Assembly: GCA_963807605.1 (NCBI GenBank)
Contig: CAWECG010000003.1
Coordinates: 64,001 to 128,000, forward strand
Source of the DNA: Candidatus Bathyarchaeota archaeon
Lineage (GTDB): Archaea; Thermoproteota; Bathyarchaeia; 40CM-2-53-6; RBG-13-38-9
Direction: 5' to 3'
Length of the DNA: 64,000 nt
Shown: positions 2,579 to 22,789 of the stretch, piece by piece
Layout: the number at the start of each line of letters is the position of its first letter
How positions within the stretch are numbered: the first letter of the stretch is position 1
Program-made: the position numbers and the translations under genes
The notes under the pieces: generated by a model
What the model was told of the DNA's origin: nothing
Database searches by the model: none
What the model saw: the letters and a program-made list of their open reading frames with translations, nothing else

Positions 2579-2898
2579 CGGCTGAGCGCGAATTCGCGTG
2601 AATGTCTTCTCTACTCACATATAGCGATAATGTGGTGCAAGAGTCTCTCAAAATCGGCAGTGTTACATCTGGAACGAGTGCTAGGTTTCTGGTATCAGGC
2701 AGTAGCAGTTCTTGTAGGATACTAGACGTAGAGGTTGCAGGCAGTGCACTCTCGACCCGTACCAATGGAAATTGAAGGCTTTCAGCGATCATGGAGTAAA
2801 CCTTGTCAAATGTAATGATAGAGACCTCTTTAGAGTTATTGATTATTTCAACGGTTAAGTGCTCCCTATGAGGCCGAAACGCGCGCGCGTTGATTCTC

Positions 2899-3597
2899 TC
2901 ACCTCAAAGATTCGGCAGATGCGTCGAGACCTGTCACCTGTTGATAAGCGAAAATGAACCAGGAGGTTACAGTCCATGCCTCCAGCCCTGTGGAGTAGAT
3001 CTTGGCAGCTTCATCAATAAGCCTCATCGTCTCTTCAGAGAAGTGTCCTCTCGGAAATCCTCCTATGATGACGGTCGGCCTCTCCTGCTTTGCTAGGAAC
3101 GTGGCTAGGCTTTGTATTCTTCTATCCTTTCCTTGGAGAGTCAATCCAGCGGTGTATGTTGGTGCAATCGTCTTCAACAGTTGGATTAGGTTCATCGATC
3201 GAATCTCAAGAAGCGGTTGGCCACTTGGGGGTACTCGACCGGACTCATAGAGCTGTTCAATTAATCCCTTGAATCGCTCACTGTTTCGGGGTATTCTCAC
3301 CTCAGGTGATACTGTGATGACGCGATTTTCGAGGGTGTGTACGTAGACTCTCAATCGTCCTGCTAGGTTTAGGGGGGAGCCTAGAGAAGTTAACAAGGCG
3401 ATGTGCACTATGTCCGGTCTGCCTCTTCTCTGGGCGTTCGGGATCCTCGCCATGGCTCTATGATGGTAAGATCTGTCCAAGAGAAGCTGTTCCGGTCTCT
3501 TACCTCTTCTCCTCGCGTCCCAAATTATTTGGGGATGGTGGACCAATTCTATTGGAACCAGTTCAAGCGCAGATTCCGCAAGTACAATCGTAAGCAA
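2899..3597 (-). CDS. nep1: 16S rRNA pseudouridine N1-methyltransferase Nep1/Emg1
   Basis: LAESALELVP, LLDRSYHH, RRGRPDIVH, RIPRNSERFKGL, IGGFPRGHF motifs. Confidence 0.95.
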   Translation of the reverse strand: MLTIVLAESALELVPIELVHHPQIIWDARRRGKRPEQLLLDRSYHHRAMARIPNAQRRGRPDIVHIALLTSLGSPLNLAGRLRVYVHTLENRVITVSPEVRIPRNSERFKGLIEQLYESGRVPPSGQPLLEIRSMNLIQLLKTIAPTYTAGLTLQGKDRRIQSLATFLAKQERPTVIIGGFPRGHFSEETMRLIDEAAKIYSTGLEAWTVTSWFIFAYQQVTGLDASAESLR

Positions 3598-4235
3598 CAG
3601 TAGCCCCTCGAAAGTCTAGCCCCGAGTAATATGGAGTAGCATTTTGGTCAAGTATTAGGCTTGTCAATTGTTGTTTCCCAGAGAACTAACTTGGATGTCG
3701 AAAAGGATTCTCACGTTTGCGCGCGTGTAACCGCTATTTTCAAGGTTCTCGATCGAGGGCGTGAATATGCGCTCGGAGGAGAGTGCGTATGAGCGCTTCT
3801 TCACTAAGGCCTTTGCTCTTGATGATTTACTAGTGGAAGCCAAGCACCTTAAGGGCGCGCTTTGTCATCGACGCTCTCATTATCTTGCGATTACTCTTCT
3901 TCACCCTGTATGCGGCACTCACATGGACGTGGAAGGCAACTATGAACGTAGAAAATACGTGGGTGCCTGCTTTTTATCGCGGAAGAAGCAGTAGCCGTCT
4001 TTGATGTTTGCTCTTCGCCTGACACATAATTCGTCTTCGAATTGACAGTTAGCGCAGGCTATTTTTTCTGACTTTATCAGAGTCTCTTCGCATCCTGAAC
4101 AATAAGATACTCAGCGTGCGGTATAGGTGTATGGGTGTCTTACAGATCGGCTGAAAGGCGCGCGGCGCATATCAGATTAACTGTATACGGTCAGCATGAG
4201 AATTAGCGAAAAATGAATAGCTTGCCAGTAAAGAT

Positions 4236-4610
4236 ATGAAGAAGAACCCCATGAGACAGAACAGTATCTATAGGGAGCTTGCCAGAGAAAGGATCGAGAA
4301 GCTCTTTGCCTTAGCTAGTGAATGCTTTGGAAGAAAGCCTCAGCTCGCCAACCGCTATGTCGACCTTGCAAGGAGTGTTGGGATGAAGTGTCGAGTCAGG
4401 ATACCGCCTCATCTGAAGATGCGTTTCTGCAAGCAATGTGGATCGTTCCTGGTCTCAGGGGTAAATTCAAGGGTCAGGATTAGACCTGATGGAAAAGGAA
4501 GAGTTGTGATTACATGTCTGAAGTGCGGGATGATAAAGCGCTATCCGATGAAGAGGGAGAAGCTAAAGAGAAGAAGAGACGTCATAGGCTCAGCCGAAGG
4601 TCCGCGGTAA
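4236..4610 (+). CDS. rnp4: Ribonuclease P protein component 4 (Rpp21)
   Basis: LARERIEKLF, RYVDLA, FCKQCGSFLVSG...RVRI...ITCLKCG zinc ribbon. Confidence 0.93.
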   Translation: MKKNPMRQNSIYRELARERIEKLFALASECFGRKPQLANRYVDLARSVGMKCRVRIPPHLKMRFCKQCGSFLVSGVNSRVRIRPDGKGRVVITCLKCGMIKRYPMKREKLKRRRDVIGSAEGPR

Positions 4611-4906
4611 TCAAGCCCAAGGTCTGGATCGGTAAGACGGGGGTATCAACAGCTCTCGTTGGTCAGTTGAATAGACAACTCAAATTTGATAAGCTGGTAA
4701 AGGTGAAGGTCCAGAAGAGTATCTCAGGAACTCAAGAGATGGAAAGGATCTCGAGGGAAGTCGCCTTCGCCACCGATTCATCATTAGTTGATGTTAGGGG
4801 CAGGACCTTTACATTATGGTTAAATGATAGAAGGTCGAGGAAGGTCGATAGGCAGCCTGTGCCGGGGAAGAAAAGACGAAGAAGAATGGATCATGTGTTG
4901 AGATAA
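4514..4906 (+). CDS. yhbY: YhbY-family CRM-domain RNA-binding protein (start uncertain)
   Basis: KPKVWIGKTGVS...LVKVKV...VDVRGRTFTL; usual position after rnp4. Confidence 0.85.
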   Translation: MSEVRDDKALSDEEGEAKEKKRRHRLSRRSAVIKPKVWIGKTGVSTALVGQLNRQLKFDKLVKVKVQKSISGTQEMERISREVAFATDSSLVDVRGRTFTLWLNDRRSRKVDRQPVPGKKRRRRMDHVLR

Positions 4907-4936
4907 TCTCATTGAACTAGGCTTAGCTGCCACTGC

Positions 4937-5458
4937 TTAATGGGAATCATTCAATGCATTTTTTGTATTGCTGAGGAAGCGCGCGAGCGCGCTTGGTGTT
5001 TCTTTAGGGCTTGCCCTAAAGTAGTAGTTGGTTCTCTTCTTTATCTTGCCACACTTTGTCATGCGGCCCAAAACTGCTTCCAGCCATGTTTTTGAGTAGT
5101 TGGTGGCTTTCAGGAGATTAGCCATGTTTGCTCTACCGTCTGGTTGAGCGTCTATTGCATCGAAGACTATCTTACATTGTTGTTCGATGACTTTTTGACA
5201 TTCGTCGGGCGTCGGGATCACGTAGTACTCACCTTTCTTCGCGATCTTGCCAATCGTTATTCCGAATTGCAGGACGGCTTTTGGATACTGACTGGGCTTG
5301 AATCCTGCAGCTTTCATTAGTTCTTCAAATCTCAAGTGTCCCTTTGGTGTTTTGGATATAGCTTCAGTCATATCGGTGAGGATGCTTTCGAATAACTGAG
5401 CAAGAGACGTTCTCTTGATGTTTCTTGCTTTCTGTAGAGTATCCTCGAATTTTTTCAT
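4937..5458 (-). CDS. Hypothetical protein, probably tandem winged-helix DNA-binding domains
   Basis: Two similar halves ending in GKIAKKGEYY and GKIKKRTNYY. Confidence 0.5.
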   Translation of the reverse strand: MKKFEDTLQKARNIKRTSLAQLFESILTDMTEAISKTPKGHLRFEELMKAAGFKPSQYPKAVLQFGITIGKIAKKGEYYVIPTPDECQKVIEQQCKIVFDAIDAQPDGRANMANLLKATNYSKTWLEAVLGRMTKCGKIKKRTNYYFRASPKETPSALARFLSNTKNALNDSH

Positions 5459-5479
5459 TCTGTCAGGGTTGATTGCTTA

Positions 5480-5491
5480 CGCGCGCGCGCG
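5480..5491. repeat. TA-(CG)6 palindromic tract at the helicase truncation
   Basis: ttaCGCGCGCGCGCGatc; member of the dispersed (CG)n family also at 2880, 7915, 10157, 11024, 12355, 12690, 16991, 22673 and shorter copies. Confidence 0.95.
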
Positions 5492-7336
5492 ATCCGACGA
5501 ACTCGTGACTACATCAAGCGCAACTACCCAGACGCTACTGTGAACGGGAAGAAGGTAATCTTCCCCGAACGACGCTTGGAAAACACGAGCTACAAGCTCG
5601 GTTCAACATACAAAGGCATGTACAAGACAATATCCCACGCTTTGACTGAAGAGCTGACCATGGCGTACTACCGCCTCCTCGAATACAAGAAGGCCGAGAA
5701 GCTCAGCATGGAGGAGCAACTGGCGCTCGGACGGATGATTGCCCTTGAAGGCATATTCAGGACTATCATGCTCAAGAGGCTTGAAAGCAGCGTCGAAGCA
5801 TTCAGGAAGAGCGTTTCGAAGCACATCGATTTTCTGCACGCATTGGAGGAACATTTGAAGCAAGGCAAGCTCCTCACAAAAGAAGCATTCAATCGGTACC
5901 TGATGAGCGTCGACGAAGAACTGGAGGAGTATATCGAGACACTCTCCGATTTCAATCCTGACGAATACAACCTTGACAAACTGTTCAACGACATCAACAA
6001 GGATCTCGCCGTTTTCACAGGAATCTTGTCCAAGGTCAAAGTCATCAGGCCGGAAGATGACGCCAAGCTGTTGGAGTTCAAAAGGAGGCTACACGAACTG
6101 GCCGCCAAGGGACAAGTAATCGTTTTCACATATTACGCTGATACGCTGGATTACATTCATGAACAAGTTTCAAAATCAGTTGATTTTGCTAATCTCAAAA
6201 TAGAGAAAATCTCCGGCGCAACCCCGCCGTCCAAACGGGAAGCTCTCGTTAATGATTTCCTCGCTAAGAAAATTGACGTTCTCATGAGCACTGATGTCCT
6301 CTCGGAAGGAATGAATCTGCAGTCTGCGCAGTTCGTCATTAATTACGACCTCCATTGGAATCCAACTCGTATGATTCAGAGAGCGGGAAGGATAGACAGA
6401 ATCGGATCGCCTTACAAGCAGATTTTCGTATACAACTTCTTTCCGGAAGACGAGCTCGAAGAACTTCTAAGGTTGGTGCAGATACTCCAAAACAAGATTA
6501 TCGATATCGATGAGTCCGTGGGCCTTGACCAGACCATCTTAGGAGAGACAATCCACCCCAAAGTCTTCGGCGTAATCAGGCGCATTTTGAAAAAAGATGC
6601 TACCATCCTCGAAGAACTGGAGACCAGCGCCTTCGGAGGCGGAGAAAAATTCTACCAGCCGCTGAAGGATTTCCAAAAACAACGGGTGATAGAGGAGCTG
6701 GATCAGATACCTTTCGGCATACACAGCGGACTTCAGAGCCAGAAATTACGTGCGATATTCTTCTATTACAAGTACGGACAAGATTCCCATTTCTGGTGCC
6801 TTGTCGACCCAGGGTCTGGAACCATCATCAGTCGGAACAAGAGCGAAATCGTTGATTATCTGGCTTGTCCGACCAATGAGCCTAGGGTCATACCCGACTT
6901 CTTCGAGGCCGTGTATGAAGCGAACAAGAAAGCTCTGGAAGACATACAGACTACTTACAAGAAAATGGAGCAGGTGCAGGGAGTAGATACGACTCTCGTG
7001 GATTACAGCAAGGAACAGAGCACGAAGTTCGTCAAGGACCTATTGAGAGAAATCGAACTTCAGCTTGAGGAATATCTTGATGAGTTTCCAGCAGAGAAGA
7101 ATCTTGAATCGAGATGGGAAGTAATAAGAACGAAGATGCTCGGCATCCCTCTTACCAAAAGGCGATTGCGTGACATCAGACGCATCTGGAGACATTATAA
7201 GAACGCGAAAGATTGGAAGAAGCTGATAGACGAACTCGATCAATTCTTGGCACAGAAGGGTCTACAACAAAGAGAGCCGATTGAGCCGTTCGACGCCGAA
7301 AGATTGAAGCTGGTAGCGATCGACTTCATATCCTGA
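5492..7336 (+). pseudogene. SNF2-like SF2 helicase, C-terminal half only (N-terminal ATPase lobe missing)
   Basis: Frame begins IRRTRDYIKRNYP right after the CG tract; motifs IV-VI present (IVFTYYADT, STDVLSEGMNLQ, NYDLHWNPTRMIQRAGRIDRIG); no Walker A or DExx. Confidence 0.85.
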
Positions 7337-7349
7337 TACACATCTGGCG

Positions 7350-7838
7350 ATGAGAGTCCTCTTGAGCGAAAAAGTTGCGTCCGAAACAGTGGGAATCATT
7401 TTCCCACTTTTGCCAAAACACGCAGAACGATTCCTCAATGAGGGCAAAACTGTATTCGTGAAATTCTTCGGAAAAGAAAGGATTACTCTGAGGCTTCGGC
7501 CAGGAAGTAAACTCTTCCTATACGAGTCCCAACGCAACAAGGAAATTGTCGGTGAGGCAAGGATCATTCGACTCGAATCGGTACGAGCTTCTGATGCGGT
7601 TTCGATGTACGGTGCGAGACTCTTTCTCACGCAATTAGAATTTGAGGAATATGTGGGAAACAGAAGAGACAAGACGATGCTTGCACTTGTCCTAGGGGAT
7701 GTAAGGAGATATGCAGTTCCCCTCAGCCTCGACAAGTCTGTGACAATGGCTGGGCGCTACATGACACGAGAAATGCACCAACAGATTCTGCGTCAACCGA
7801 GAAATTCATTCACGATAAAGGCCAAATCACGAGTCTAA
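7350..7838 (+). CDS. DUF365 / PUA-like (ASCH/EVE-related) protein
   Basis: FPLLPKHAERFLNEGKTVFVK, LRPGSKLFLYES...IVGEARI, LFLTQLEFEEY, TMAGRYMT. Confidence 0.7.
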   Translation: MRVLLSEKVASETVGIIFPLLPKHAERFLNEGKTVFVKFFGKERITLRLRPGSKLFLYESQRNKEIVGEARIIRLESVRASDAVSMYGARLFLTQLEFEEYVGNRRDKTMLALVLGDVRRYAVPLSLDKSVTMAGRYMTREMHQQILRQPRNSFTIKAKSRV

Positions 7839-7976
7839 CTCTTCTTTCCTTTGGGTATTGTGTTTCTGTTCCGTCTCGTCGAACGTACAAGCCGAATCGT
7901 CTTTGACATGTATACGCGCGCGCGTTCTCTAGCGCTTCTGCTCGCTGGGGCGTCTACTCTTGATTGACCTTTTCCG

Positions 7977-8252
7977 CTAGCGTTCCTTCAGTTTGCGCTC
8001 AAGATTCTCAAGCCTTTTGGTGGCCTGCTCAAACTGTAGCAAAGTCAAGTCTACTGTCAGGATCATGATGCAGGTTTCTGCAGTGATTGTTGGCCTAAAC
8101 ACATTCATCCAAACCAGTGCTATAACTTCGAGGTTAAGGGAGGAAGTCATGCCAAAAAGACGAAGGTGGAAACCAAAGCGACTGTGGATCCTGCCGAGGT
8201 AGAAGACCCGCACATTGAGACAGAATAGATCTGCTAATGTGAGCGCACCCAT
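7977..8252 (-). CDS. Small chimeric ORF ending in an integrase-like coiled-coil tail
   Basis: C-terminus QFEQATKRLENLERKLKER matches the C-terminus of the recombinase at 21827 (KFEEATRRLEDLERKLTEK). Confidence 0.4.
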   Translation of the reverse strand: MGALTLADLFCLNVRVFYLGRIHSRFGFHLRLFGMTSSLNLEVIALVWMNVFRPTITAETCIMILTVDLTLLQFEQATKRLENLERKLKER

Positions 8253-9127
8253 TCCTCATATTTCCAGCGAGACTCGGCGAGGCTGGTCATCGGGGCCACG
8301 CTCCCACTGTTCAGCCCGCCTTTTTTTACGCGCTCGAAGAGTTTCATCGCCTTTTCAGGCTCAGCGTGACCGTGAATAAGCAAGGCCGGATTAGCTCTAT
8401 CAATTATGCCGCTGACAGTTTGAGCTTCAAGGTCCTTCCTGTTGCCGATATAGCTGCAGATCAATCCGGATGTAGCATTCAGACTATTAGGAACCGACAG
8501 GACCCGCATTGGATCCACACTCAGAATAAAATGGCTCCTGTCATAGACGAAGGTTTCCAAGGCTAGGATCTTGCTAAACCTGAATCGGGCAACCTCATGT
8601 GACTTTATTGGATTCCTAGCATCATAATGAGTAAAGTCTCTAATGTCAAAGTCTAAAGCATAGACGTGAAAACCACGCCGACCACTGAAGACAATCGCGA
8701 TCTTGGAATAGTAGTTTTCAATCTTCTCGCAGAGCTGAACCGTCATCTTCCGGCTGAGCTCAACACACTTACGGCAGACACCTTTGACGATTAGACAGTT
8801 ATGGAAATTCTGCCATCTCTGAATGACGTATGCGTCAATATCCACGGCATAGCTTCCACCAATTGGAACTGCATGTCGTGCCTTGTTTTTTCTGCCAACT
8901 CTCTCGGGGAAGAGCCAGTCAAGCACGGAAAAGTAGACATGGGAGGGAGCATATTTGACACAGTATTCTTTGAGTTCTCGCTGATTGATTCGGTTTTGAA
9001 ACTTGTTCAGCTTCACAAACTTGTGGTTTAAGATTTCAAGCCGGAAATGCTTCCTTGAATAGTTCCAGGGGAGTTTGCCCTCCAGAGGTGCAGCTTGATA
9101 GTAGGATTGGATCTCGTGGGGTCGCAT
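8234..9127 (-). CDS. Archaeo-eukaryotic primase, PriS-like catalytic subunit (element-borne)
   Basis: HVYFSV, YAVDIDA (DxD), Cys/His cluster HNC...VCRKC, IVFSGRRGFHVY, VDPMRVLSVPNSLN. Confidence 0.88.
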   Translation of the reverse strand: MRPHEIQSYYQAAPLEGKLPWNYSRKHFRLEILNHKFVKLNKFQNRINQRELKEYCVKYAPSHVYFSVLDWLFPERVGRKNKARHAVPIGGSYAVDIDAYVIQRWQNFHNCLIVKGVCRKCVELSRKMTVQLCEKIENYYSKIAIVFSGRRGFHVYALDFDIRDFTHYDARNPIKSHEVARFRFSKILALETFVYDRSHFILSVDPMRVLSVPNSLNATSGLICSYIGNRKDLEAQTVSGIIDRANPALLIHGHAEPEKAMKLFERVKKGGLNSGSVAPMTSLAESRWKYEEWVRSH

Positions 9128-9400
9128 TCCAGCTCAGACCATCAGGATCCTTCATAGGATGTGAAGCTGAGAGGAGCCTGAATGTTAAGAGAGAGTGTAA
9201 TAAAATTACAGAACTGCAGATTAGGCTTTAGGCTACAGATTCTCTCTAATCCATTTCTTCATACCCTCACTACGCGCGCCAAGGTAGAAGACGACTAACT
9301 AAGAGGTTCTGTTACTTCTGTGGGACATAGTTCTGACTGTTAACTGTCTGGACATGATATTTCCAACAGTGTTAAGAGTGCAAGGAGGTGACGGTACTGG

Positions 9401-9703
9401 ATGAGAAGAAGAGATTTGGTCGAGGAACAAATAGAAGCTGAAGTTCTTGAGGCGAAAAATGTCGGTTCAAATGTGGTCATGTTCACCTTAAGTGATGAAA
9501 CACGAATCAAAGCTACTGTTACAATTGCAACCGTACTCCGCTCGAAAGAACTTAATCCTGATGGAAGTCACAAGTATCATGCTAATGTGAATGTGAATTT
9601 GGAGTTTGTACAACCTGCTGGCAAGATTGTCAAAGTACCTCGCTCTATCTTTGGCCCACCTCAGCCTTCAGTGAAACCAAGTGATACTAGACTAGTGACA
9701 TGA
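9401..9703 (+). CDS. Hypothetical protein
   Basis: Strong GGAGGTGA Shine-Dalgarno upstream, 100 aa with plausible composition. Confidence 0.65.
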   Translation: MRRRDLVEEQIEAEVLEAKNVGSNVVMFTLSDETRIKATVTIATVLRSKELNPDGSHKYHANVNVNLEFVQPAGKIVKVPRSIFGPPQPSVKPSDTRLVT

Positions 9704-9902
9704 CGAATCAGAGTTTTTGAGTGCTAAACAACTACAGCTTTCTTCTTAGACTTTTCTGCTTTATACTCCCTCGCCCACTACGCGCGCGTAAAAGAGCCAC
9801 TAGGCTTGATAGTACTAAGAATAATGGTACTTGGGAGAGCTTTGATGGCTAATGCTGTAGATCAGATTGTTGTTTCGAATACTGCAGATGTATACTCTGG
9901 AT

Positions 9903-10152
9903 AGTATGAGTACTATGAGTATGATGAAGCCTATACTATGAATGCTTAAGCCTATACTATGAGTATGCTTGAAGCCTATGCTGAAGCCTCAAAGTATATG
10001 ATACTAGCCTTATCATCAAGCTTGCCGAAGCCTTCTGAAGCTTGCTGGCTATAGTGGTACATTTGTATACAGTTCTAGGGGATGCTAGAGAAGCATACTG
10101 GTAAGCTTAGTTAAGCTTAAGCAAGCCTATGATGACCTATGATGAGCCTATG
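9903..10152. repeat. Degenerate short tandem repeat built from AAGCCTATA/G and TACTATGAGTATG words
   Basis: AAGCCTATACTATGA at 9927 and 9948; TACTATGAGTATG at 9911 and 9955; four AAGCTT; CCTATGATGA repeated near 10126-10145. Confidence 0.8.
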
Positions 10153-10243
10153 CCAACGCGCGCGCGTAGCTATGCTTGATTCGTGAAAAGTTGGCTGACG
10201 AGCGCGGTTTCTTCCGTTCTAGCGACAAAGGTTAACAGGTTAC

Positions 10244-10411
10244 TCAAGGATATATTATGCGCAGAATCATCAGTTCCTCTAGAAGCAATGCCAGCCCTAT
10301 CACGAAGACTGCTACCGCAGCTATCGTAGTTCCCCTACTCTGGGTTCGTACCCCTATTATGACAGCCAAAACCAGGAGAGCTATTTCCATTATGAGGTTT
10401 GGAATTGACAT
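10244..10411 (-). CDS. 55-aa two-TM membrane protein (below ORF-track cutoff)
   Basis: MSIPNLIMEIALLVLAVIIGVRTQSRGTTIAAVAVFVIGLALLLEELMILRIIYP. Confidence 0.55.
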   Translation of the reverse strand: MSIPNLIMEIALLVLAVIIGVRTQSRGTTIAAVAVFVIGLALLLEELMILRIIYP

Positions 10412-10555
10412 GTGTTCTATGTGTGTTTGTCGGGCATGATAAGACTTGCTAAATTCTTATGCGCCAGAGAATTACGCGCGCTCGACTCTGCTTTGCGTCG
10501 TGCGAACGATGAAGGCGCGCGCGTCAGTGTATCTGTCTTTTGATCGCAGGGCATG

Positions 10556-10963
10556 TTACTTCTTATAGAGTGTTGAGAGCACGTATCCATATGAGATGCT
10601 TATGAAGAATCCTACGTAGATGAGCCCAACCGCTATACTGGTAGCCATGTCAACGAGGCCGACGAATGAACCGGCTGCGATGTTCATGACGAGCCAGATC
10701 ATCAGGCCGAAGTAGACGCCTTTCATGACGCCTTTCCCAGGAATCCCATCATAGAACCTTTGGTAGAACATGCTGAATATTGCGCCCCAGATTATTGTGA
10801 GGACGATCGCGCGCGCTAGAACAAAAGTTGAGGTTGAACCTGGAGCAGCTGTCATGAGCCCTGACGAAACGCCTATGATCGCAAAAATGACTCCTACTAT
10901 GCCACCGACAAGTCCTGCAATAGCACCCGCCGCAATAACGCTTTTCAAATACCCACCTCCCAT
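10556..10963 (-). CDS. Four-TM membrane protein
   Basis: Gly-rich hydrophobic helices, FYDGIPGKGVMKGVYFGLMIW. Confidence 0.7.
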   Translation of the reverse strand: MGGGYLKSVIAAGAIAGLVGGIVGVIFAIIGVSSGLMTAAPGSTSTFVLARAIVLTIIWGAIFSMFYQRFYDGIPGKGVMKGVYFGLMIWLVMNIAAGSFVGLVDMATSIAVGLIYVGFFISISYGYVLSTLYKK

Positions 10964-11071
10964 CTCGTGGATCGGTAAAAAAACCGTCAGAGCAAGAACG
11001 CGTCAAATAGATTTAACACTTGTCGCGCGCGCGTAGGATCCTGACGGCATAGCCCCAGCGGGAGACTCTTC

Positions 11072-11266
11072 ATGTTTGAGGTGTCAACTGCGCGGCGGGG
11101 AGACCGGCTGACTTTTCGCGAGGAGAAGAGGAAGGTTGAGCTTCTAGTCAAGATCTCCGCGAGGAAAGGAATAGATCTGTCAGACTATCTCAGAATGGCC
11201 CTGCGGGAAGCCTTGAGATCGGATCCCCTGGTGACGGAGGAGGAGAAGAAGGCACCCGGCCTCTAG
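11072..11266 (+). CDS. Ribbon-helix-helix (CopG-like) DNA-binding protein
   Basis: RLTFR...LLVKISARKGIDLSDYLRMALREAL. Confidence 0.6.
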   Translation: MFEVSTARRGDRLTFREEKRKVELLVKISARKGIDLSDYLRMALREALRSDPLVTEEEKKAPGL

Positions 11267-11345
11267 GCCATATCACAAGAGCGTAAGATTAGAAGAGAGC
11301 ACTGGCCGGTAAATTCGCGCGGGGGAGCGTTAAGGGATCAAAGCC

Positions 11346-12889: not shown

Positions 12890-14683
12890 ATGAAGAAGCG
12901 CCCCAAAAGCAATGATAAACCCTACAAACTAAAAGTAGGGGATGACCCGGTAGAGAGTTTCGAGTCTGACCTCCTTGATTTCAAAAACCCAGCCATAGAA
13001 CTTGCAAAGGACCTTTACGAGATCTCCAAGACCTCTGGAGTTTGCTGCGGCGTGGTCGGTTCGTGGGGAAGCGGTAAATCAAGCTTCATGAAATTGATGG
13101 ACGAACATGTGCGAAAGGAGTATACTGGAAAGAAAGGATACACGGCATGGTTCACAGCATGGGATCCCGGCGGAGCACATGATCTAGGAGACGCGATGCT
13201 ACACAGCCTTTTCCGCGAACTTGCCGAAGGAAACAAAGAGCTATCGAACCCTTTCAAAGAACTTGAAAACGCTCTCGGAATGCGCCGAAGTGCCAAGCAG
13301 ACAGTCGGTCGAATCTTACAGAATGTCTCGGGAGCATTACCTGAGGGAGGACGCGTTGCAGCAAAAGCCACTGGTAGCTTGCTTTGCGAATTAGATACAT
13401 CAAGGACGATCAGAGAATCTTTTGTCAGCCTTATGGAGTGGCTTAGGAAAGAAGACTGCACGGTCTTCTACTTTATTGACGACATAGATCGTGCTTCAGG
13501 AGACCAAATCAGAGATCTCTTGTCTGAGCTTAAGTTGTATGTAAGCCATTCCGGGATCATTGCTATCTTGGGATATGACACAGACTACGTAGTTAATGCA
13601 TTAAGAGTTCCAGGAATACTGCCCCAGGGCACAGACCCGGAGAAGTATCTAGAGAAGATAGTGACCATCAGAAGAAACGTTCCAACGGCAAGCTTCGTGA
13701 AAATGAGGGAGTACGCAGCCCTTCTTACACAAACGATGACCAATCTCATCAAAGATTCCGGAGTGATTGCTTATCTAGCAGCCCTTCTATCTTCTGGTAA
13801 CCCTCGGCAATTGAAGCGCCTTATTCTCAGGTTCACCAACCTTATTGACTCTGAGTTCGTGAAACAGACTAATCTGTCCTCACGGGACCTTCGATACGTA
13901 ATACTGAGTGCGCTTCTAATCACAGCAGCTGCCGAGATGGGCCTCCTAGCGGATGACGGCATTAGAGATTCCCTACAAACCTCTCAAGGACTCGAAGCCA
14001 TGCTTCAAGAATACATTAAAAACCACCCATCGAAGACAAAGGAAGTAGAACTTTTCAAAGAAGCAATGATGAAGATCCCGGGACTCGCAAGTGGGCTTAT
14101 AGGAGAGCTAAGGTTGCATCAATATCCGGGATCTGCACAATTATGGGTTCCTGAAGGGTTGGAAAAACGCGGACCACCATTTGACTGGAGACATGTGATA
14201 ATCCCAATTATTTCTAGTGCTGCTGAACATGGATTCAAGATACCGCCAAGTATCGCAGACTCCTCGGAAGATATTACTGTTCCACCCTCCGCAACTAACA
14301 TCGTCGAAGGAAGCCGATTGGCAAACTATCTTACTGCTGCCTACGCATATTTACAAGGAGAGACGGGTAATGTTTGTCTACTAACTTGGAATCAATTCAA
14401 TATGTTCGTTCAGGTTTTCGATTCGAGCCGTGGCAGTCCCTTTAGTATCTTCGGCGATTATGCCAATCGATCTGCGCTCCGTACCTCAGAGAAAGGCTTT
14501 GCAGCTTGGATAATCGATGAAGGGGGTCAAATAGATAGTTCTGAATGGACACGCATCGCCCAAGTCGCTCAAGAATCCTCAAAAGGTCTGAAGAATCCGC
14601 TGGTATTCTTGTACACACCCGCCTCCAAGATCGAGGCATTGGTGTCATTTCTTTTGAAAGTCTCGCAAGGGCAGCCTGACTAA
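12890..14683 (+). CDS. KAP-family P-loop NTPase
   Basis: GVVGSWGSGKSS (Walker A), WFTAW, FIDDIDR (Walker B), YLEKIV, NPRQLKR. Confidence 0.9.
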   Translation: MKKRPKSNDKPYKLKVGDDPVESFESDLLDFKNPAIELAKDLYEISKTSGVCCGVVGSWGSGKSSFMKLMDEHVRKEYTGKKGYTAWFTAWDPGGAHDLGDAMLHSLFRELAEGNKELSNPFKELENALGMRRSAKQTVGRILQNVSGALPEGGRVAAKATGSLLCELDTSRTIRESFVSLMEWLRKEDCTVFYFIDDIDRASGDQIRDLLSELKLYVSHSGIIAILGYDTDYVVNALRVPGILPQGTDPEKYLEKIVTIRRNVPTASFVKMREYAALLTQTMTNLIKDSGVIAYLAALLSSGNPRQLKRLILRFTNLIDSEFVKQTNLSSRDLRYVILSALLITAAAEMGLLADDGIRDSLQTSQGLEAMLQEYIKNHPSKTKEVELFKEAMMKIPGLASGLIGELRLHQYPGSAQLWVPEGLEKRGPPFDWRHVIIPIISSAAEHGFKIPPSIADSSEDITVPPSATNIVEGSRLANYLTAAYAYLQGETGNVCLLTWNQFNMFVQVFDSSRGSPFSIFGDYANRSALRTSEKGFAAWIIDEGGQIDSSEWTRIAQVAQESSKGLKNPLVFLYTPASKIEALVSFLLKVSQGQPD

Positions 14684-15123
14684 CAATGCGGCACCCCTCT
14701 GATCATCCTCATCTGAGGACAAGGAGATTACCCCGACAAGGCATCTAAGCACCAAGAAGCTGTCGCAACACTTGGATTAGTCATTTGATACTCGTCACAT
14801 GATAAGACGGACCTGTAGACGCTAGAAGCTTCTGTTAAGGCTTCCAGTCGTTTCAGTTTGGCAAGCAGGTCGGGTCTGCACTTGCACGGCTGCTCAATTT
14901 CACGATGAGTTGCGAAGAGGCTACAGTAGTCACAATACATAATCTCAATATCCACACCCTTCAATCTTGTAATCTTGTGTGACGGATGAGGATTCATCAA
15001 GACAACCCCCGACGCAACTATCAACTGAGAAATCATGGGGAATAAAAGATAGAGAGAACAGCGAGAAAGCGGCCCTTGATGACCTCCAAACTCTCAGATA
15101 TCTTTTGGGCAAAGCCTAATTGA

Positions 15124-15660
15124 TTGAGCGTCTATCGTGAGCGTATGGATGAGTGGCTGAGTGTTCTTACCAATTTTCTAGCGACTTTTGTCGGTGTAGG
15201 CTTGGCCTTCGGACTCACATTCTGGTATGATCGACGTAACAAAACAGTTCAAACGTGGGAAACGAAGATTCGCATTCTTGAGGCCATTATTCTCGAGTAT
15301 CAAATGACCCTTGATTTACTGGGTCAATTAGTTGAAGGAGAAGTGAAGCCAGACAAGCCTATCCGTTTTTCTACCTTGGCTGTCGATTCCGCAGTGGGAT
15401 CCGGTGATTTATCGCTTCTAGACCCGAACATCCAACAGGCCATTGGCGAATTGAGAACATATTTCAAGGAAGCGGAGATGTATTCAGATAAGATACTCTC
15501 GATGATTGGATCTGCTGATATGGCAATGTCTAATGCACCAATTGAACTGATTAGGTTTAGAGCATCCTCGACAACAACACAAAACACTCTGCGTGTGAGA
15601 ATACCTCAAGTACTCAAAGTTCTCAAAGATGAAGTAGAGAGACTTAAAAAACAGAGGTGA
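15124..15660 (+). CDS. Hypothetical protein with an N-terminal TM helix (start may be 15145)
   Basis: FLATFVGVGLAFGLTFWY followed by a helical domain. Confidence 0.65.
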   Translation: MSVYRERMDEWLSVLTNFLATFVGVGLAFGLTFWYDRRNKTVQTWETKIRILEAIILEYQMTLDLLGQLVEGEVKPDKPIRFSTLAVDSAVGSGDLSLLDPNIQQAIGELRTYFKEAEMYSDKILSMIGSADMAMSNAPIELIRFRASSTTTQNTLRVRIPQVLKVLKDEVERLKKQR

Positions 15661-15667
15661 CCGTCGT

Positions 15668-16054
15668 TTGGAATACTGTCCTTATTGTCAAAGATGGGTT
15701 GAACCGAAGAAAGACTATAACGATCTTATTGCAGGAGGTGTCATATTCGGAGCTGCAGGTGCACTAGTCGGAGGTGCCCACCACCTGCTCAAAGGCTCCC
15801 GATGCCCAATCTGCAATAACATAATACAAGGCAGAGGAGCTGCAACCGTACCTCCACAAGCCCTGTCACAACCACCACATCAACAATACCCACCTCCACC
15901 TTTGCCGTATCAAATGGCTAATGCTCAACGTTCGTACCCCCCAGCCCCACAACCCCTAACTCCTGGAACCAGCCACAACTGCCCGAGATGTGGCCAGCCA
16001 CTAGTCTGGACACCTCAACTCCAACGATGGTACTGCTACTACTGCAAGACATAG
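15668..16054 (+). CDS. Zinc-ribbon / Pro-Gln-rich protein
   Basis: CPYC, CPIC, CPRC and CYYC pairs with a glycine-zipper segment and a proline-rich linker. Confidence 0.65.
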   Translation: MEYCPYCQRWVEPKKDYNDLIAGGVIFGAAGALVGGAHHLLKGSRCPICNNIIQGRGAATVPPQALSQPPHQQYPPPPLPYQMANAQRSYPPAPQPLTPGTSHNCPRCGQPLVWTPQLQRWYCYYCKT

Positions 16055-16256
16055 CGTCTTCATGAGTTGTTTTTGACTCTTAACACGACAGTGGAGAAGC
16101 CAACATAGTGGGCCTGCGACTGACTGAGAGCGAGACCCTAATTTGAAAACTTGACAGAACCGCATGGGTTAGACTTTGAAACTTGCCGGAACTGATACTG
16201 AAAACAAACCAGGCTGGCGAGGGTTTCAGCTTAAATAATGTGAAAATTCTCACATA

Positions 16257-16664
16257 ATGAGGAAAAAATCTATGATTGATACGAGTCGCTACGAACGTGG
16301 CTGGAAAAAGCTAAGAGAGATTCATGGCAAAGTTGGTGAGCGTGTCATCGAAGATCTTCAGTCAATAGCGCCTGATTTTGCGCGTTACCTAATAGAATTC
16401 ACATTTGGCGACATTTACTCTCGTCCAGGTCTGGATTTAAAGTCGAGAGAGGCAGCTGCAGTTGCAGTTTTGACGGCTCTTGGAAACGCTCAAACCCAAC
16501 TCAAGGCACACATTCATGGAGCGCTGAATGTTGGTTGCACTCGTGAGGAGATCGTTGAGGTGATCATGCAGACTGCTGTTTATGCGGGGTTTCCTTCGGC
16601 TCTGAACGCCATGAGCGTGGCTAACGAGGTTTTTCAGGAACGTGCCGCTCAAAGACAGCCCTGA
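16257..16664 (+). CDS. Carboxymuconolactone decarboxylase family protein
   Basis: FGDIYSRPGLDLKSRE, HIHGALNVG, EIVEVIMQTAVYAGFP. Confidence 0.92.
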   Translation: MRKKSMIDTSRYERGWKKLREIHGKVGERVIEDLQSIAPDFARYLIEFTFGDIYSRPGLDLKSREAAAVAVLTALGNAQTQLKAHIHGALNVGCTREEIVEVIMQTAVYAGFPSALNAMSVANEVFQERAAQRQP

Positions 16665-17000
16665 CACTAAAGAAATAGAAGACCCCCCCCCAAGGCAGCC
16701 CCTATCCGTGAAGCCATCAAGAAGATCAAAACTCTCCTCGAGAACGACCCATACAGTCAACCAATCCACTAGGGGATCCCTTGAAAACACCATGCATCAT
16801 CCAGAAAGAACCTTAACGTTTTCTTCATGGATTCGTAATGATGACTTACAACTACTCTTGATCGTCTTGTTAGTGCACACCATTTCCAGCACACATTTCG
16901 CAGTAGGGGCAGTAAGAATACCATTCATCGCAAAGAACACCAGTAGAAAGACAGTTTGGTCTGGGTCGAGACGCAGCGGAAGATACCTCTCGCGCGCGCG

Positions 17001-17175
17001 TCCCAACAATCCTCTCTTCATCGGCTGCAAGACGGAAGACTACTCCAAACGGATGAAGAATATACGGCTGACCTACCTTGTCAACCTGTCCGCGATGAGC
17101 CTTCACCGCCAGAAGAATAGCATCGTCCAATGTTGTTTTCCGCTTTGCCTTCTTCTTCGAAGATGACCTAGTCAT
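17001..17175 (-). pseudogene. HD-domain (RelA/SpoT-like hydrolase) protein, truncated before the HD motif
   Basis: LDDAILLAVKAHRGQVDKVGQPYILHP...EERIVG, then the (CG)5 tract where VLHD is expected. Confidence 0.85.
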
Positions 17176-17428
17176 ACCAGACAACGCCACCTGTGGCGAG
17201 CGCCCCGTACCGTTTGCTAGATTGACAAGTACCGGGTTAACCCTTTCCCTTTGTCTATCCTCCACAAGCAGATGTGCGAAGGAGAAGAAATCTTTTTGAC
17301 TACCCGCCAAGGCATGAAAAACCATAGCGCGTTAGGATGCCGCGATTCCCAAGCCCCGTTATGATATCGCTCATGACGCGAGGAAGCGGATATAAGCTCA
17401 CACAAGAGAATACTTTGATGACTGTGAC

Positions 17429-19618
17429 TTGTCTAAGACAGATACTTCTGTCGGAAACCTTGTCGAATGGATGAGGAGTGGGGAACTACGCCTCCTAGAG
17501 ATACAGCGCCGGTATGTATGGCCCGCAACACGTGTGAGAGACCTCCTCGATTCGTTGTACCGCCAATACCCGACTGGCACCATCCTCGTCTGGGAGACTG
17601 ACCAACCGAAGCCAAGTAAGAATCTGGCCGTTTCACAAGAAGAGAGTCCCTTCAAGGGACGAAGGCTGCTCTTAGATGGCCAACAGCGACTCACCTCCCT
17701 CTACGCGGTCATACTCGGCCAACCCGTGACAGTCCGAGGACGCAAAAAACCAATTGAGATTCTGTTTAACCTCGAGCATCCGGAGAAGTTTGAAGGAGAA
17801 GTGGAAGAGATTGAATACGACACAAGGACTGACGACTCAGATTCTGACGACTCAACTGAGGAAGAAAACACCCCCAACGTCTAGCAGCGACTGAAGCAGA
17901 GGACATTCGTTGTAGAAAGCAAGGCTCTACTCGCGGATCCGCACTGGGTCAAGGTAACAGACATCTTCACGAAATCTGATGCACAAATCCTCAAACCATT
18001 AGTGAAAAGCCTCGACGATCCAAACTATGAAAAATACTCTGAGCGATTACAAAAAGTCCGCAAGATCAAGGATTATCCATATGTAGTGCAAGTTCTAGAC
18101 AAAAGTCTTGACTATCCAGAAGTCACTGAGATTTTTGTCCGCGTTAACTCCCTTGGCATGAAGCTGCGCGGATCAGATCTAGCACTTGCCCAGATAACGT
18201 CACGTTGGCAAGACTCGTTGCGACTTTTCGAAGATTTCCAAGAGGAATGTGAGGAACGAGGCCTCACGATCGATCTCGGAGTTCTCGTCAGAGCAATGGT
18301 CGTCTTTGCCACAGATCATAGCAGATTTCTAACAGTCAATACGATTCTCATTAATAAGTTGAAGTCAGCATGGGAAACCACCAAAGATGGCGTTCAGTTC
18401 GCCGCAAACTTCCTTCTAGCCAACGCTGCGATAGAAGACATCAGCCTACTTTCGTCTCCCATCTTCATCATAACACTAGCTTACGCTTTGACCAAGAGAG
18501 GCAAGCAACTGACCGGTGAGGAAGAGCGCGCACTGAAGCAATGGCTCTACATCGCAAGTGCTCGTGGCCACTATTCAGGCTCTTCTGAGTCGACTCTGGA
18601 CAGCGATCTAGCGGCAATTCTTAAGGGCGGTGCATTAGAGCTGCTTAACATTCGCAATCAACTCGGCGGAATGCCTATCTTGCCAAGTGATCTAGCCGGC
18701 CGTGGAAGAAATAGTCTCCTCTTCCCCATGACGTACCTCGCGTTGAAGGCACTTGGTGCGAAAGACTGGAGCACCCAACTTGGACTTAGCCTCGCAAACC
18801 AAGGACATCAACATGCAATCCAACATCATCATATTTTTCCAAAAGCCCAACTCAGGAAGGCGGGTTACGAAAGAAGCGAGATCAATGAAATCGCCAACAT
18901 GGCCTTTATCTCGGCTGGAACGAACCGAGAACTGTCAACCACCTCTGCAGAGGAATATCTCGCAGATATCCTGAAACGCCTTGGCAAGCAGTCCTTGGAG
19001 AGTCACTGTATTCCAACAGAGCCGAGCCTTTGGAAAATAGAATCATTCCGTGAGTTTCTCAAATACAGACGCGCCGCTCTTGCAAAGGCAGTCAACGATT
19101 TCATCCTACAACAAGGACCTGAATCAGAAGCAGTTGACATAGAGAAGCTAGTAGATCTAGGCGAAAACGAGAACGTCGAGTTCAAGACTTCGGCACGCTG
19201 GGACTACCGTGCAAACATGGTCAACAAGGCTTTGGAGAGGGTTATTGTGAAATCTCTGGCTGGGTTTCTGAACGGCAAGGGCGGAGTACTCATTCTTGGT
19301 GTGGACGACAGTGGTGCATTGGTTGGGTTGGAGAAGGATTATTCCACATTGTCCAGCAGACCTAACCGAGATGGATACTATCAGTTTCTGGTAAACCTGT
19401 ATTCGTCTCTGGGACGAGACATAAGCAGCAATATCTCCGTGGTATTTCACAACTTGAAGAATCGCGAAATATGTGCGCTGAAGATAGGCCACAGCTCGAG
19501 GCCTGTCTGGGTTGAGGATGGGATACTGAGGAGATTTTACCTTAGAAGCGAAAACACCACACAGGAACTCAATGCTCAGGAAGCAACAGAGTACATCAGA
19601 ATTAAGTGGCCCAAGTGA
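17429..19618 (+). pseudogene. GmrSD-type DUF262 + HNH-like nuclease fused to an AlbA_2/Schlafen domain, interrupted by one in-frame TAG (17882-17884)
   Basis: IQRRYVW, LLDGQQRLT, FVRVNSLG, QHHHIFPK...NEIANM, GENENVEFK...GFLNGKGGVLILGVDD; the 151-aa and 538-aa ORFs are in frame, with 39 open codons between them. Confidence 0.85.
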
Positions 19619-19977
19619 GGGATGGGAACATGCAAATCAATCCCCAGATTCGCGAACTTGCCTACGATACTTTGCCTTCAGACACGCTGAAGAAGGCTTA
19701 CCGGCTAGCGCGCGCTATTCCTTAAGGAAGAACTTAGAGGTAAAGACATTTTTCGAATCTGGTCCCATCCAGGAAAAACCATCTAAGAATAACTTCCTAG
19801 TCTTCGACTTATGACTCTTGGGACTCGGATCCAACGGTGTATGGTGGGCGATTGTGGTTGTTTTAAGCATGCTTTCAAGTTGTTCTTTCCTGCCGCCCAA
19901 ATTGAGGTTATGTTTGCGCAGTAACCTATATCCTTATATTTCATATGACGTAATCCCCTTTAGAGGGGGAAAACAGA

Positions 19978-20784
19978 ATAAAAAACATAAGATTAGGGCC
20001 AAACGAACTCAAGCTAATCTTTACACTAGAAAGAGACCAAAAGACAGTATTTACACCGTTGACGGCCAAGGAAATACTTGGTACATCTGACAAAGCAGTC
20101 TACGGGGTATTAGAGGGACTCAAAAAGAAGAAAAGGATTAAACAAATACGTGGCGGCCTCTATCTGCTTGCCCCAGCTAAATCAGGGATCGAAGCTGAAT
20201 GGACTGAGCACATATTTACAATCCTTCCCAGCCTCTTGAAGACATCTTATTATGTCGGGTTCTGGTCCGCGCTCTCTTACTGGGGAATGACAGAACAGAT
20301 CCCAGAAGTAACCTATGTCGTGGTAACAAGACAGAGAAGAAAACTGCAGTTTGACGGCAGAGTTGTCCAGTTTATTACCTACCCTGAGACTCGCTTCTTC
20401 GGTTACGAGAAGGGAACATTGGGGAATACGGAGTTTAACATATCCGATCGTGAAAAAACGATAGTTGATTCCCTAGCACATCCAGAATATGTTGGTGGCA
20501 TATCCGAAGCAGCTAAGGCCATCTGGATGAATAGAGATGAAATCAAGATCGCCCAACTGATTGACTATTCACAAAGAATGAATATCAAAGCCGTGCGTAT
20601 GCGATTGGGTTACTTGTTGAAAATACTCGGCTTTGGTGAAGAATCATACAATTCACTGCTGCCTAATGGTCCTACAGGTGCACCGTGGCTGGATCCCTCG
20701 AGCGAAAAAAGGCAGATAAAATATTCGTCTAGGTGGGGCCTTCGCTTGAATGTACCAGAAAAAGTAATCCTTCATTGGAAGTGA
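19978..20784 (+). CDS. Type IV toxin-antitoxin antitoxin, AbiEi family
   Basis: IRGGLY, YYVGFWSALSYWGMTEQIP, ISDREKTIVD...PEYVGG; frame extends upstream of the TTG at 20059 to an ATA at 19978. Confidence 0.85.
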   Translation: MKNIRLGPNELKLIFTLERDQKTVFTPLTAKEILGTSDKAVYGVLEGLKKKKRIKQIRGGLYLLAPAKSGIEAEWTEHIFTILPSLLKTSYYVGFWSALSYWGMTEQIPEVTYVVVTRQRRKLQFDGRVVQFITYPETRFFGYEKGTLGNTEFNISDREKTIVDSLAHPEYVGGISEAAKAIWMNRDEIKIAQLIDYSQRMNIKAVRMRLGYLLKILGFGEESYNSLLPNGPTGAPWLDPSSEKRQIKYSSRWGLRLNVPEKVILHWK

Positions 20785-20788
20785 TTAG

Positions 20789-21739
20789 ATGGAGTTAGAT
20801 GGACTGAAAAGATATGCAGCGTCAAAACAGATAGCTTTGGGCACAGTCGAAAAGGACTGCGTGCTGTCTGTAGTGCTTTCACAGCTTTCTAAGAGCCAGT
20901 TTGCAAACCAGCTAATCTTCAAAGGCGGCACAGCCATAAAGAAGGCCTATTTTCCAGACGCAAGATTCTCAGTAGATCTTGACTTCAACTTCTTCGACAT
21001 TTCAGGTGATGCGCTTGTTAAGGAAATCTCGGAGCTTTTCAGCGGAAAAACCATCCTAGAGACAGTATTTGAAGATATCAAGAATGTGGAGATGGGGAAT
21101 GATAAAGTGCTGTTACGCTTGAGGTACAAAGCACAACTTGACCATCTTGACAGTGTAAGACTCGACCTCACCTTCAGGGAACCAGTAATGCTCGAACCAA
21201 GATGGTGGACGCCAAAAGATGATTATGATGTGACAAGAAGAATGACTTGTGAACATCTGACCTTAGGAGACATCAGGCCTATAACGAACGTTGAAGAACG
21301 ACTTTACGGGTGTAAACTCGGCAGAATGAGCGGAACAGCAAGAAACCGCAGAGCATGTCTCGACTGCAAAATGCAGAGCCCGAGAAGGAAGGACCCACTC
21401 CCCTCAGCCTTCAAGGCAATGTCTCTAGAAGAAATGCTATCAGAGAAAGTCAGAGCATGCCTAATGAGAGGTAGGCCGAGGGACCTCTACGACATTTGGT
21501 TCCTTCAGTCAAAAGGCATCATCTTAGACCGTCAGATGACCATCGATAAGCTTCACCTCTACCAAGAATTTCATCAGAGAATACCCAATATCAGGGAAAT
21601 AAGAGAAAACTTGGTAGTTATTGAACCAGAATGGGACAGGAATCTTGCGGCCCTAGCTCCTTCAAAGACATATCCGAAGTTTCAGGAGGCTCTCGAGAGC
21701 CTGATTCTCTTTTTAGAAAAAACAGGTTGGGAAACATGA
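20789..21739 (+). CDS. Type IV toxin-antitoxin toxin, AbiEii nucleotidyltransferase
   Basis: VEKD, LIFKGGTAIKK, RFSVDLDF, EEMLSEKVRA...RPRDLYD. Confidence 0.92.
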   Translation: MELDGLKRYAASKQIALGTVEKDCVLSVVLSQLSKSQFANQLIFKGGTAIKKAYFPDARFSVDLDFNFFDISGDALVKEISELFSGKTILETVFEDIKNVEMGNDKVLLRLRYKAQLDHLDSVRLDLTFREPVMLEPRWWTPKDDYDVTRRMTCEHLTLGDIRPITNVEERLYGCKLGRMSGTARNRRACLDCKMQSPRRKDPLPSAFKAMSLEEMLSEKVRACLMRGRPRDLYDIWFLQSKGIILDRQMTIDKLHLYQEFHQRIPNIREIRENLVVIEPEWDRNLAALAPSKTYPKFQEALESLILFLEKTGWET

Positions 21740-21826
21740 CCCAGCACACATCTTAGCACACTTAACAAATTACGCTTGATCCACATGGAAGTTGATGCTG
21801 CCCATTCGTGTCTGAACGTGATACTG

Positions 21827-22672
21827 CTATGTTTTCTCTGTTAATTTTCGCTCGAGATCCTCCAGTCTTCTTGTTGCTTCCTCAAACTTTAGTGTGAGCT
21901 TCTTTACAGCCTCGTCGCGTCTCTGCATCTCTTCCTGGAGCTGGGAGACCTCAGCTGATCCCGAGATTATGTTAAGATACTTCTCAGCTATCCTGTACTG
22001 AGTCAGCGTATAGTTCTTGTCTTTGAAGAAATTGTCATACTGATTCGGATCTGTAACATGACCCATGAAGAATTCAACAGCCTCCAGATCTAACCCCTCC
22101 TTCTTGCCTTGAAGATGAAGTAGGGTTCTCGCTGTATCCCTGAACTCGTGCAGGTTGAAGCCGTGTCGGTTACCAGTTGAGCCGCCACGCTTAATGTATT
22201 TCAGCCTTTCAAGAAGCCGCAGATGCCTCATGCGTATACCATGTTTGCGTACAGCCTTCCCATCAGCATCCAGGTAGATGGGTTCACCGTCTCGAGGCCA
22301 GCCCCTCTTCCTCTCAAAATACTCCTTCCAGGCAGCTAGAGCATCGTAGCCGATGAAGGTGTGACATTCCCGCTTGCCCTTGTTCTCCTTTCGGCCAGCA
22401 TAACTAAACATGAAGGGCTCCTCAACTCCCTTCTCCTTCAAGTGTTTGACGAGAACTCCAGCGCAAGTCGTGTTGAAGATCATGAATCTCTCAAGATCCA
22501 TGATTCCCATCCATAAAGTCAGGTAGAAGGCTTTCCGACCAACATCCACATTATCAATTAAACTCTTAACAACCTCAACACTCAACCTGCCAGAACTCGG
22601 CGACTTATCAGGATTAATCCGAAAATCATCAGCAGGCAGGGAAACACGGTTCTTCTTGAAGAAACCCCTAAT
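21827..22672 (-). pseudogene. Tyrosine recombinase/integrase lacking its N-terminus
   Basis: AIRGFFKKNRVSLP, FNLHEFRD (HxxR), FFMGH, NQYD catalytic Tyr region; no in-frame ATG/GTG/TTG between 22585 and the pncB stop. Confidence 0.8.
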
Positions 22673-22789
22673 CGCGCGCGCGTACGGGCTATTGATTCGC
22701 GATCGTGTATTCGAGTATTGGCTCAGATTGAGAAGCGCTTCTAGGTAGCCAGATCTGTGATCGAGTAGAAGCTGCTGAACCCTGACGAC

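Follow-up and report, generated by a model that had tools for sequence, protein, structure and literature searches.

The closest described relatives of the sequence feature considered here are repair events that leave added bases behind. In vertebrates, telomerase inserts interstitial telomeric sequences (ITS) at repaired breaks: a fixed repeat, TTAGGG, is found at the joint and is missing from the empty allele, bases are often lost from the flanks, the terminal base fits the register of the repeat and old copies decay (PMC2246262). In Saccharolobus, PriSL performs a microhomology end joining that is Ku-independent and proceeds by terminal transfer and annealing over a few G-C pairs, leaving mostly 1-2 bp indels that form CC, GGC, CGG or CCG (PMC12019639, PMC3333859). 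The present analysis concerns a 64,000-nucleotide stretch of a Candidatus Bathyarchaeota archaeon genome (the window; contig CAWECG010000003.1, positions 64,001 to 128,000, or C3:64001-128000 of a 2.65-Mb source genome of five contigs and 47% GC) and the short tracts of alternating C and G dispersed in it, which are very probably scars written at the joints of deleted, fused or inserted DNA. We put at roughly 0.7 the probability that these tracts are explained by an end-joining route that does without Ku and inserts a fixed filler.

Like ITS, the tracts are a fixed repeat that is absent from the empty allele, with flanks often deleted, an end base in register and copies that decay with age; they differ in being prokaryotic and in having as their repeat a GC palindrome, complementary to itself and some 8 nt long. 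While ITS depend on telomerase and its repeat-bearing RNA template, here neither a reverse transcriptase (RT) nor a template RNA was found, and both ends were apparently tailed and then paired; the source genome has no PF00078 (RVT_1) match, although a very divergent RT could escape that search. With the joining seen in Saccharolobus the tracts share the dispensability of Ku and the presence of PriS, which occurs both in the source genome and in a second tract-rich genome of another order (G160, a single 1.98-Mb contig with 39.6% GC). In comparison with the Saccharolobus scars, for which neither a constant 8-10 nt filler nor the joining of unrelated fragments has been described, the scar here is constant and 8-10 nt long; smaller scars are invisible to a tract search. 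Ku-LigD non-homologous end joining (NHEJ), the N-nucleotides of TdT and Pol mu and the IEE AEP-helicase joining (PMC9943667) likewise involve untemplated or slipped bases and deletions and need no homology, but their inserts are variable, whereas the tracts are constant, Ku is anti-correlated with them and neither PolX nor accessory AEPs track them. The protein-templated synthesis of poly(dCdA) by DRT3b is a case of an enzyme that enforces alternating dinucleotide DNA without a nucleic-acid template, but DRT3 is an RT that makes free DNA for phage defence (PMC13174585), whereas the tracts sit in chromosomal joints. Cyanobacterial HIP1 is, like the tracts, a highly iterated GC-rich palindrome of a prokaryotic genome; in contrast to them, it is conserved between genomes and lies inside genes in all frames (PMC5861425), and neither conserved positions nor frequent placement in genes was seen for the tracts, which are made at joints. 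The marks of an insertion sequence (IS) footprint, namely a duplicated target or the termini of an element at the scar, and an element present in all rich genomes, were not found either, and an att, attC or dif site is contradicted by donors that lack the run, by the lack of a consensus beyond T or TA and by the absence of the island integrases from G160. By the features compared, the tracts resemble filler-inserting end joining and are not Ku-LigD NHEJ, ITS, an IS footprint, an att site or HIP1.

We know of no constant written scar reported for any prokaryote, and literature searches yielded no description of the motif. The novel elements are a rule for the register of the added bases, a threshold in run length, a profile across the class and the elimination of candidate enzymes. 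Double-strand break repair in Ku-less archaea is an open question. The scars make the route countable in genomes, with hundreds of dated events in each, and the route itself would build the accessory genome of an abundant sediment (and soil) lineage from gene-sized pieces. The T to A to G/C alternation and the 8-bp threshold offer an exact biochemical read-out for enzyme hunting and, if the reading is true, an enzyme able to render any pair of DNA ends compatible via a short palindrome would be a useful tool for cloning or editing.

Composition of the tracts and their donor sequences

A preliminary description of the window had listed nine CG tracts of at least 10 nt, at 2880, 5480, 7915, 10157, 11024, 12355, 12690, 16991 and 22673, and all of these are present, as is every shorter copy that it gave; the tract at 5480 is indeed (CG)6, and the one at 12354/5 reads G(CG)5. 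TA adjoins seven of the nine directly on one side, as had been reported, but it is merely the commonest case of a constant flank, which consists of an A before and a T after the run on each strand. Nor is (CG)5 the typical form: the source genome holds 320 alternating CG runs of at least 8 nt, clustered in variable regions, and their mode is an 8-mer in GC phase (147 of 320), the modal form being A-GCGCGCGC-T and A..T flanks being found at 199 of the 320. The clustering described for the island stands, with 12 of the 14 window runs of at least 8 nt in 4907-22789, 28% of the window; the motif is nevertheless genome-wide and not special to the island. When (CG)n runs were counted genome-wide against Markov models, as had been proposed, (CG)5 proved strongly over-represented, with 41 sites against about 0.7 expected under order-2/3 models (about 55-fold), while the 4-mers CGCG and GCGC stand at expectation in the source genome, neither enriched nor depleted. 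The excess has both a length threshold and a polarity, AGCGCGCT occurring at 1.6 times, AGCGCGCGCT at 78 times and TGCGCGCGCA at 1.0 times expectation. An even spread through intact genes, which the preliminary description had named as a pattern that would contradict a joining origin, is not what is seen: only 7 of the 320 tracts lie inside open reading frames (ORFs) of at least 900 nt, which cover 46% of the genome, and homology mostly stops at the tracts.

The origin of the run is best judged from the sequences that it joins. Alignment of the flanks to homologues, a comparison suggested beforehand, indicates that homology mostly ends at the tract and that the run is new. In the source genome, 88 repeat ends lie no more than 5 bp from a tract, where shifted controls give 6.8. 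A paralogue reaches the tract at 126 sides, and at 94 of these it has no CG run; the 32 sides where tract and paralogue have the run in common belong to IS copies or to segments that were duplicated once the scar was in place. Under a stricter test (paralogues of at least 85% identity, runs of at least 8 nt), homology stops and the paralogue is runless at 57 of 67 tract sides, compared with 15 of 220 control positions. Where one paralogue contains both flanks, the tract stands in place of 4-6, 17 or 252 bp and no target duplication is seen; at 15 tracts the two flanks match separate places. This donor comparison supports the general proposal of the preliminary description, a scar of a joining mechanism, and the data fit the third of its candidate origins, a CG patch written at broken ends. 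The other candidates, a site for the island recombinase and the fill-in of CGCG-type restriction cuts, fail because the parental breakpoints lack any CG run, and the tract-rich G160 is without a homologue of the island integrase; the analogies to HIP1 and to Z-DNA fail on the same runless breakpoints.

The pattern recurs in G160, where only 11 of 432 runs lie inside the long ORFs that cover 49% of the genome and homology stops at 24 of 45 tract sides against 13 of 106 controls. Deletions replaced by a run measure 3, 20 and 23 bp and up to 2 kb; two paralogue pairs of 97-99% identity have 20 and 23 bp swapped for the run. The source genome uses both the GC and the CG phase, while G160 uses almost only the GC phase and is 29-fold enriched in (TAGC)n, which often adjoins its GC runs; these differences in filler are lineage dialects. 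Tracts are inherited and then age: one-transition variants occur at about seven times expectation in both genomes, and one core spacer is empty in a first relative, while a second has an insertion there whose tract is decayed and a third has a shorter form whose tract is fresh. Tract positions are not conserved between relatives.

Across 414 Bathyarchaeia genomes, a sample in which kin are not independent, the trait was scored by the count of AGCGCGCGCT against a reversed control, and 25 genomes of six families are tract-rich (16-131 copies, control 0-7). Genomes of one genus can differ sharply (104 vs 3, 53 vs 1 and 83 vs 1), and many genomes show a slight excess (6-14 vs 0-1). Two families rich in Ku or PolX have no tract excess, which fits a backup route, if on the evidence of two lineages only. 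In viral contigs, the 14-mer gave 14 unrelated matches, none of them archaeal by comparison; the 14-mer palindrome of one circular Rep/capsid-type viral contig of 2.67 kb lies in an intergenic region (L271:93-106) and is probably unrelated.

Register rule, proposed route and competing explanations

The bases at the joints follow a register rule. In the source genome and G160 together, a single base separates the donor end from the run in 17 cases; 16 of these bases are A, and in 15 of the 16 the added A follows a T (p 1e-7). The 32 direct joints never have T as the last donor base (p 3e-5) but always A, G or C, in keeping with the register of the run. The two flanks of a tract are independent of each other. 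This independence, together with the lack of any excess of flank palindromy, led us to reject a fold-back or P-nucleotide origin, and a likeness to the protelomerase core TACGCGCGTA was dropped on the ground that the tract flanks are not inverted repeats.

These regularities suggest a route, which we consider fairly probable, in which end joining independent of Ku writes a fixed, self-complementary filler. Each broken 3' end would be extended in register with TA(GC)n or TA(CG)n, aligned by 1-3 bases, a T end gaining A, an A end gaining G or C and a G/C end continuing the alternation. The two tails would then pair via about eight G-C pairs, and trimming and ligation would yield left-A-GCGCGCGC-T-right. 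As all tailed ends would be compatible, deletions could be sealed and foreign or duplicated gene-sized fragments spliced into the chromosome. The enzyme is the weakest step of the proposal: we favour a shared chromosomal polymerase in a core backup route, most likely PriSL and/or the damage-induced extender PolB2, which would copy a short palindromic oligonucleotide or slip on the partner end, and scar load would reflect how often a lineage uses the route. PolB2 extends mismatches, lacks proofreading and has a low terminal-transferase activity (PMC8764526). PriSL has terminal transfer activity, needs only two G-C pairs to anneal ends and mends breaks in vivo (PMC12019639, PMC3333859). PolB2-like genes are present in 23 of the 25 tract-rich genomes, and within family f17 in 18 of 22 rich genomes against 43 of 104 (Fisher p 7e-4, uncorrected for kinship and genome size); PolB2 is associated with the trait and not sufficient for it.

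Several observations weigh against this reading. At 27 of 76 informative joints the ends are longer or diverged and fall outside the register rule, and no tract context that could betray a template RNA is conserved between the source genome and G160. No tested gene tracks the trait: PriSL is universal and PolB2 is found in at least 202 of 401 genomes, most of them tract-poor, so that neither follows the tracts, and eight PolB2 loci of the G160 type from other archaea hold 0 tracts in 155 kb. The scars described for PriSL are 1-2 bp indels and not an 8-10 nt palindrome (PMC12019639), the within-genus contrasts are easier to explain by a mobile factor than by a core enzyme, and the whole analysis rests on assembled sequence.

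The same scar could instead be written by a dedicated mobile enzyme, a protein- or RNA-templated nucleotidyltransferase, a divergent RT or a primase-polymerase, on an element often missing from the bins; such a writer differs from the proposed route in the enzyme alone, and we hold it to be a tentative alternative. The patchiness over six families and the contrasts within genera speak for it, as do the lineage dialects and the precedent of protein-templated alternating DNA made by DRT3b (PMC13174585), but the comparison of the source genome with G160, with its incomplete subtraction of core genes, turned up no shared accessory nucleic-acid enzyme save PolX, which fails, the source genome lacks an RVT_1 match and the low-level excess in many genomes looks like a continuum. 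Equally doubtful is a dedicated telomerase-like or protein-templated stitching polymerase that would put TA(GC)n tails on any end, so that all ends would fit each other and breaks could be mended and gene fragments captured without homology, and that would have spread horizontally among Bathyarchaeia, IS having evolved to land in its scars. Transposition could also leave such tracts, as footprints or targets of IS1182/IS5-like elements with adjacent deletions ending there, and nearly every copy of two DDE_Tnp_1 families (about 1.12 and 1.14 kb) indeed lies in a GCGCGC run. The IS ends, however, start inside the run with a 4-bp CGCG duplication and therefore need a run that is already there, at most breakpoints the donor is CG-free and the target is not duplicated, and the IS family was not found in the tract-rich G003, G004, G007, G160 and G166 but is present in the tract-poor G008 and G012, neither family matching in G160; this unlikely explanation is largely refuted.

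A pre-existing site that starts rearrangements, whether for a recombinase, HIP1-like methylation or restriction or as a fragile Z-DNA site, would account for a palindromic, over-represented motif at junctions and for the 32 of 126 sides where the paralogue has the run too; runless donors at the other 94, the status of the shared cases as IS copies or post-scar duplications, the 4-mers at expectation and the unconserved positions refute it for the majority of sites, and we consider it very improbable. Library or assembly chimeras joined via a GC adaptor-like sequence have hardly any chance of being the cause: every genome is an assembly from environmental DNA, but there are indirect signs against an artefact, in that the tracts avoid long genes, exist as decayed copies, receive IS insertions and are in one gene retained in frame, and 25 genomes of six families have the trait while about 390 do not.

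In the search for the enzyme of the favoured end-joining route, gene content was compared by tiling the whole of G160 and roughly one quarter of the tract-free G030, so core-gene subtraction is incomplete, and candidates were judged by eye and motif scan, by which short or very divergent genes may be missed. The preliminary description had proposed looking for co-occurring recombinase, ligase or primase genes; some are present, and none of those tested follows the tract profile. PolX, the sole accessory nucleic-acid enzyme found to be shared by the source genome and G160, looked strong at 67% identity against a median of 41% and fails across the class, its close clade comprising four tract-rich and four tract-poor genomes and being undetected in most tract-rich ones. 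Ku-LigD is rejected as the writer: of 13 tract-rich genomes of the order only the source genome has Ku, 31 Ku-positive genomes are tract-poor with 0-4 motifs each, and G160 has no Ku-LigD. None of the three primases tested, whether from the island or accessory, accounts for the trait. The primase-like gene of the island itself is mostly fragments in relatives and has no match in G160; it is cargo, not cause. The nth-linked AEP fails the presence profile or lacks a G160 match, PolY and the island tyrosine recombinases have no match in G160, the LigD phosphoesterase is near universal (61/71), and NurA and NucS, in five genomes each, show no contrast.

Some of these genes are of interest in themselves. 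The PolX-PHP clade (source genome C1:345194-346909; G160 L181:6551-8263) keeps 62-70% identity across three orders, which points to recent transfer, and its G160 copy is split by a stop. The Ku operon of the source genome lies on an island (L079, C1:588.8-592.2 kb) and comprises LigD-Pol, Ku, a LigD-ligase split in two frames and DUF72. Class-wide, the LigD phosphoesterase domain mostly stands alone (130-220 aa), with frames of 450-510 aa in one large genus group. In three tract-rich genomes of two genera (G002:C7:26925-29125, G003:C186:1233-3430, G015:C185:8904-11101), PolB2 is broken at one shared point into pieces of about 476 and 289 aa, possibly a split gene or a programmed frameshift; the PolB2 gene of G160 stands apart from RadA-like partners and has tracts on its flanks.

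The island and the individual tracts of the window

Most window tracts lie in a mosaic island of about 17.9 kb (4907-22789) between a yhbY-like gene (4514-4906) and pncB (22790-23887). In seven corresponding loci from relatives (L003, L005, L012, L036, L037, L039 and L041) these two genes are about 100 bp apart, which identifies 4907-22789 as inserted; its content is made up of defence-type and fragmentary genes. Of three gene truncations that the preliminary description had placed at tracts, those of the HD hydrolase and the integrase are confirmed against intact homologues and that of the helicase is supported. The (CG)6 scar at 5480-5491 caps an SNF2/DrmD-like helicase without its N-terminal half (ORF 5540-7336), whose profile match begins at position 337 of 1021; the frame is open from the tract into IRRTR, and the breakpoint, placed from the profile match, presumably coincides with the tract. 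The (CG)5 scar at 16991-17000 cuts an HD-hydrolase gene (- strand) just before the HD motif, and the homologue in G001 (L135, 86%) runs on without a CG run. At the right edge of the island, the (CG)5 scar at 22673-22682 caps a tyrosine-recombinase-like gene (21827-22672, - strand) that lacks about 93 N-terminal codons relative to an intact paralogue (C4:98071-99219; 382 aa, 63% identical), which has no run at the break; a metagenome search with this window integrase gave no match.

A captured segment of 0.5 kb is bounded by a 9-nt scar on the left (10515-10523) and a (CG)5 scar on the right (11024-11033); its paralogue at C1:409.1-409.6 kb (90%) has no run at either end and continues without one past the 11024 point. 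Within the segment, a further 9-nt scar (10808-10816) lies inside a membrane-protein gene (10556-10963, - strand), where the four bases ATCA of the paralogue have become the seven bases GCGCGCG and Val-Met has become Ala-Arg-Ala, with the frame kept. Outside the island, the (CG)5 scar at 2880-2889 lies shortly after the stop codon of nep1 and borders an expansion of about 0.2 kb in the core intergenic spacer; the spacer measures about 100 bp in relatives, holds tracts with unrelated flanks in other genomes and holds none in one close relative.

The other tracts are (CG)5 at 7915-7924 and 10157-10166 and (CG)4 at 9781-9788, all intergenic; G(CG)5 at 12354-12364, 3' of ORF 11785-12336; (CG)5 at 12690-12699, beside a start-less frame of 52-53 codons (12528-12686, - strand) with no homologue in the DNA compared; the canonical TA-GCGCGCGC-TA at 19708-19715, between a GmrSD-like gene and an AbiE pair; and, outside the island, (CG)4 at 50087-50094. 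The tract at 10157 is preceded by a degenerate low-complexity repeat of TATGA/AAGCT-rich units (9900-10150), with look-alikes elsewhere in the genome.

Among the island genes are the stand-alone PriS-like (AEP) gene (8234-9127, - strand; weak PF01896/TIGR00335 match), a KAP-family NTPase (12890-14683) and an AbiEi/AbiEii toxin-antitoxin pair (20059-21739). The GmrSD-like protein (17429-19618, + strand) has a C-terminal Schlafen/AlbA domain, and the one in-frame TAG of its gene (17882-17884) may be a nonsense mutation or a site of read-through. Elsewhere in the source genome, IS1182/IS5-like copies (L013, L014 and L024, at C3:458.3 kb, C1:359.5 kb and C1:343.6 kb) target CGCG inside scars, possibly a safe-haven strategy. 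The source genome also carries a second dispersed intergenic repeat, (TAGCT or CCCTT)-GGTGAG-CAC, at 98 sites in 77 clusters; it is absent from G160 and thus independent of the CG tracts. Its tails are variable (CA)n, (CAC)n or (CGA)n of up to 116 nt, its tandem units resemble a tRNA 3' half ending in CCA, and examples lie in islands beyond the window at C1:137.8 kb, C3:43.2 kb and C4:17.3 kb.

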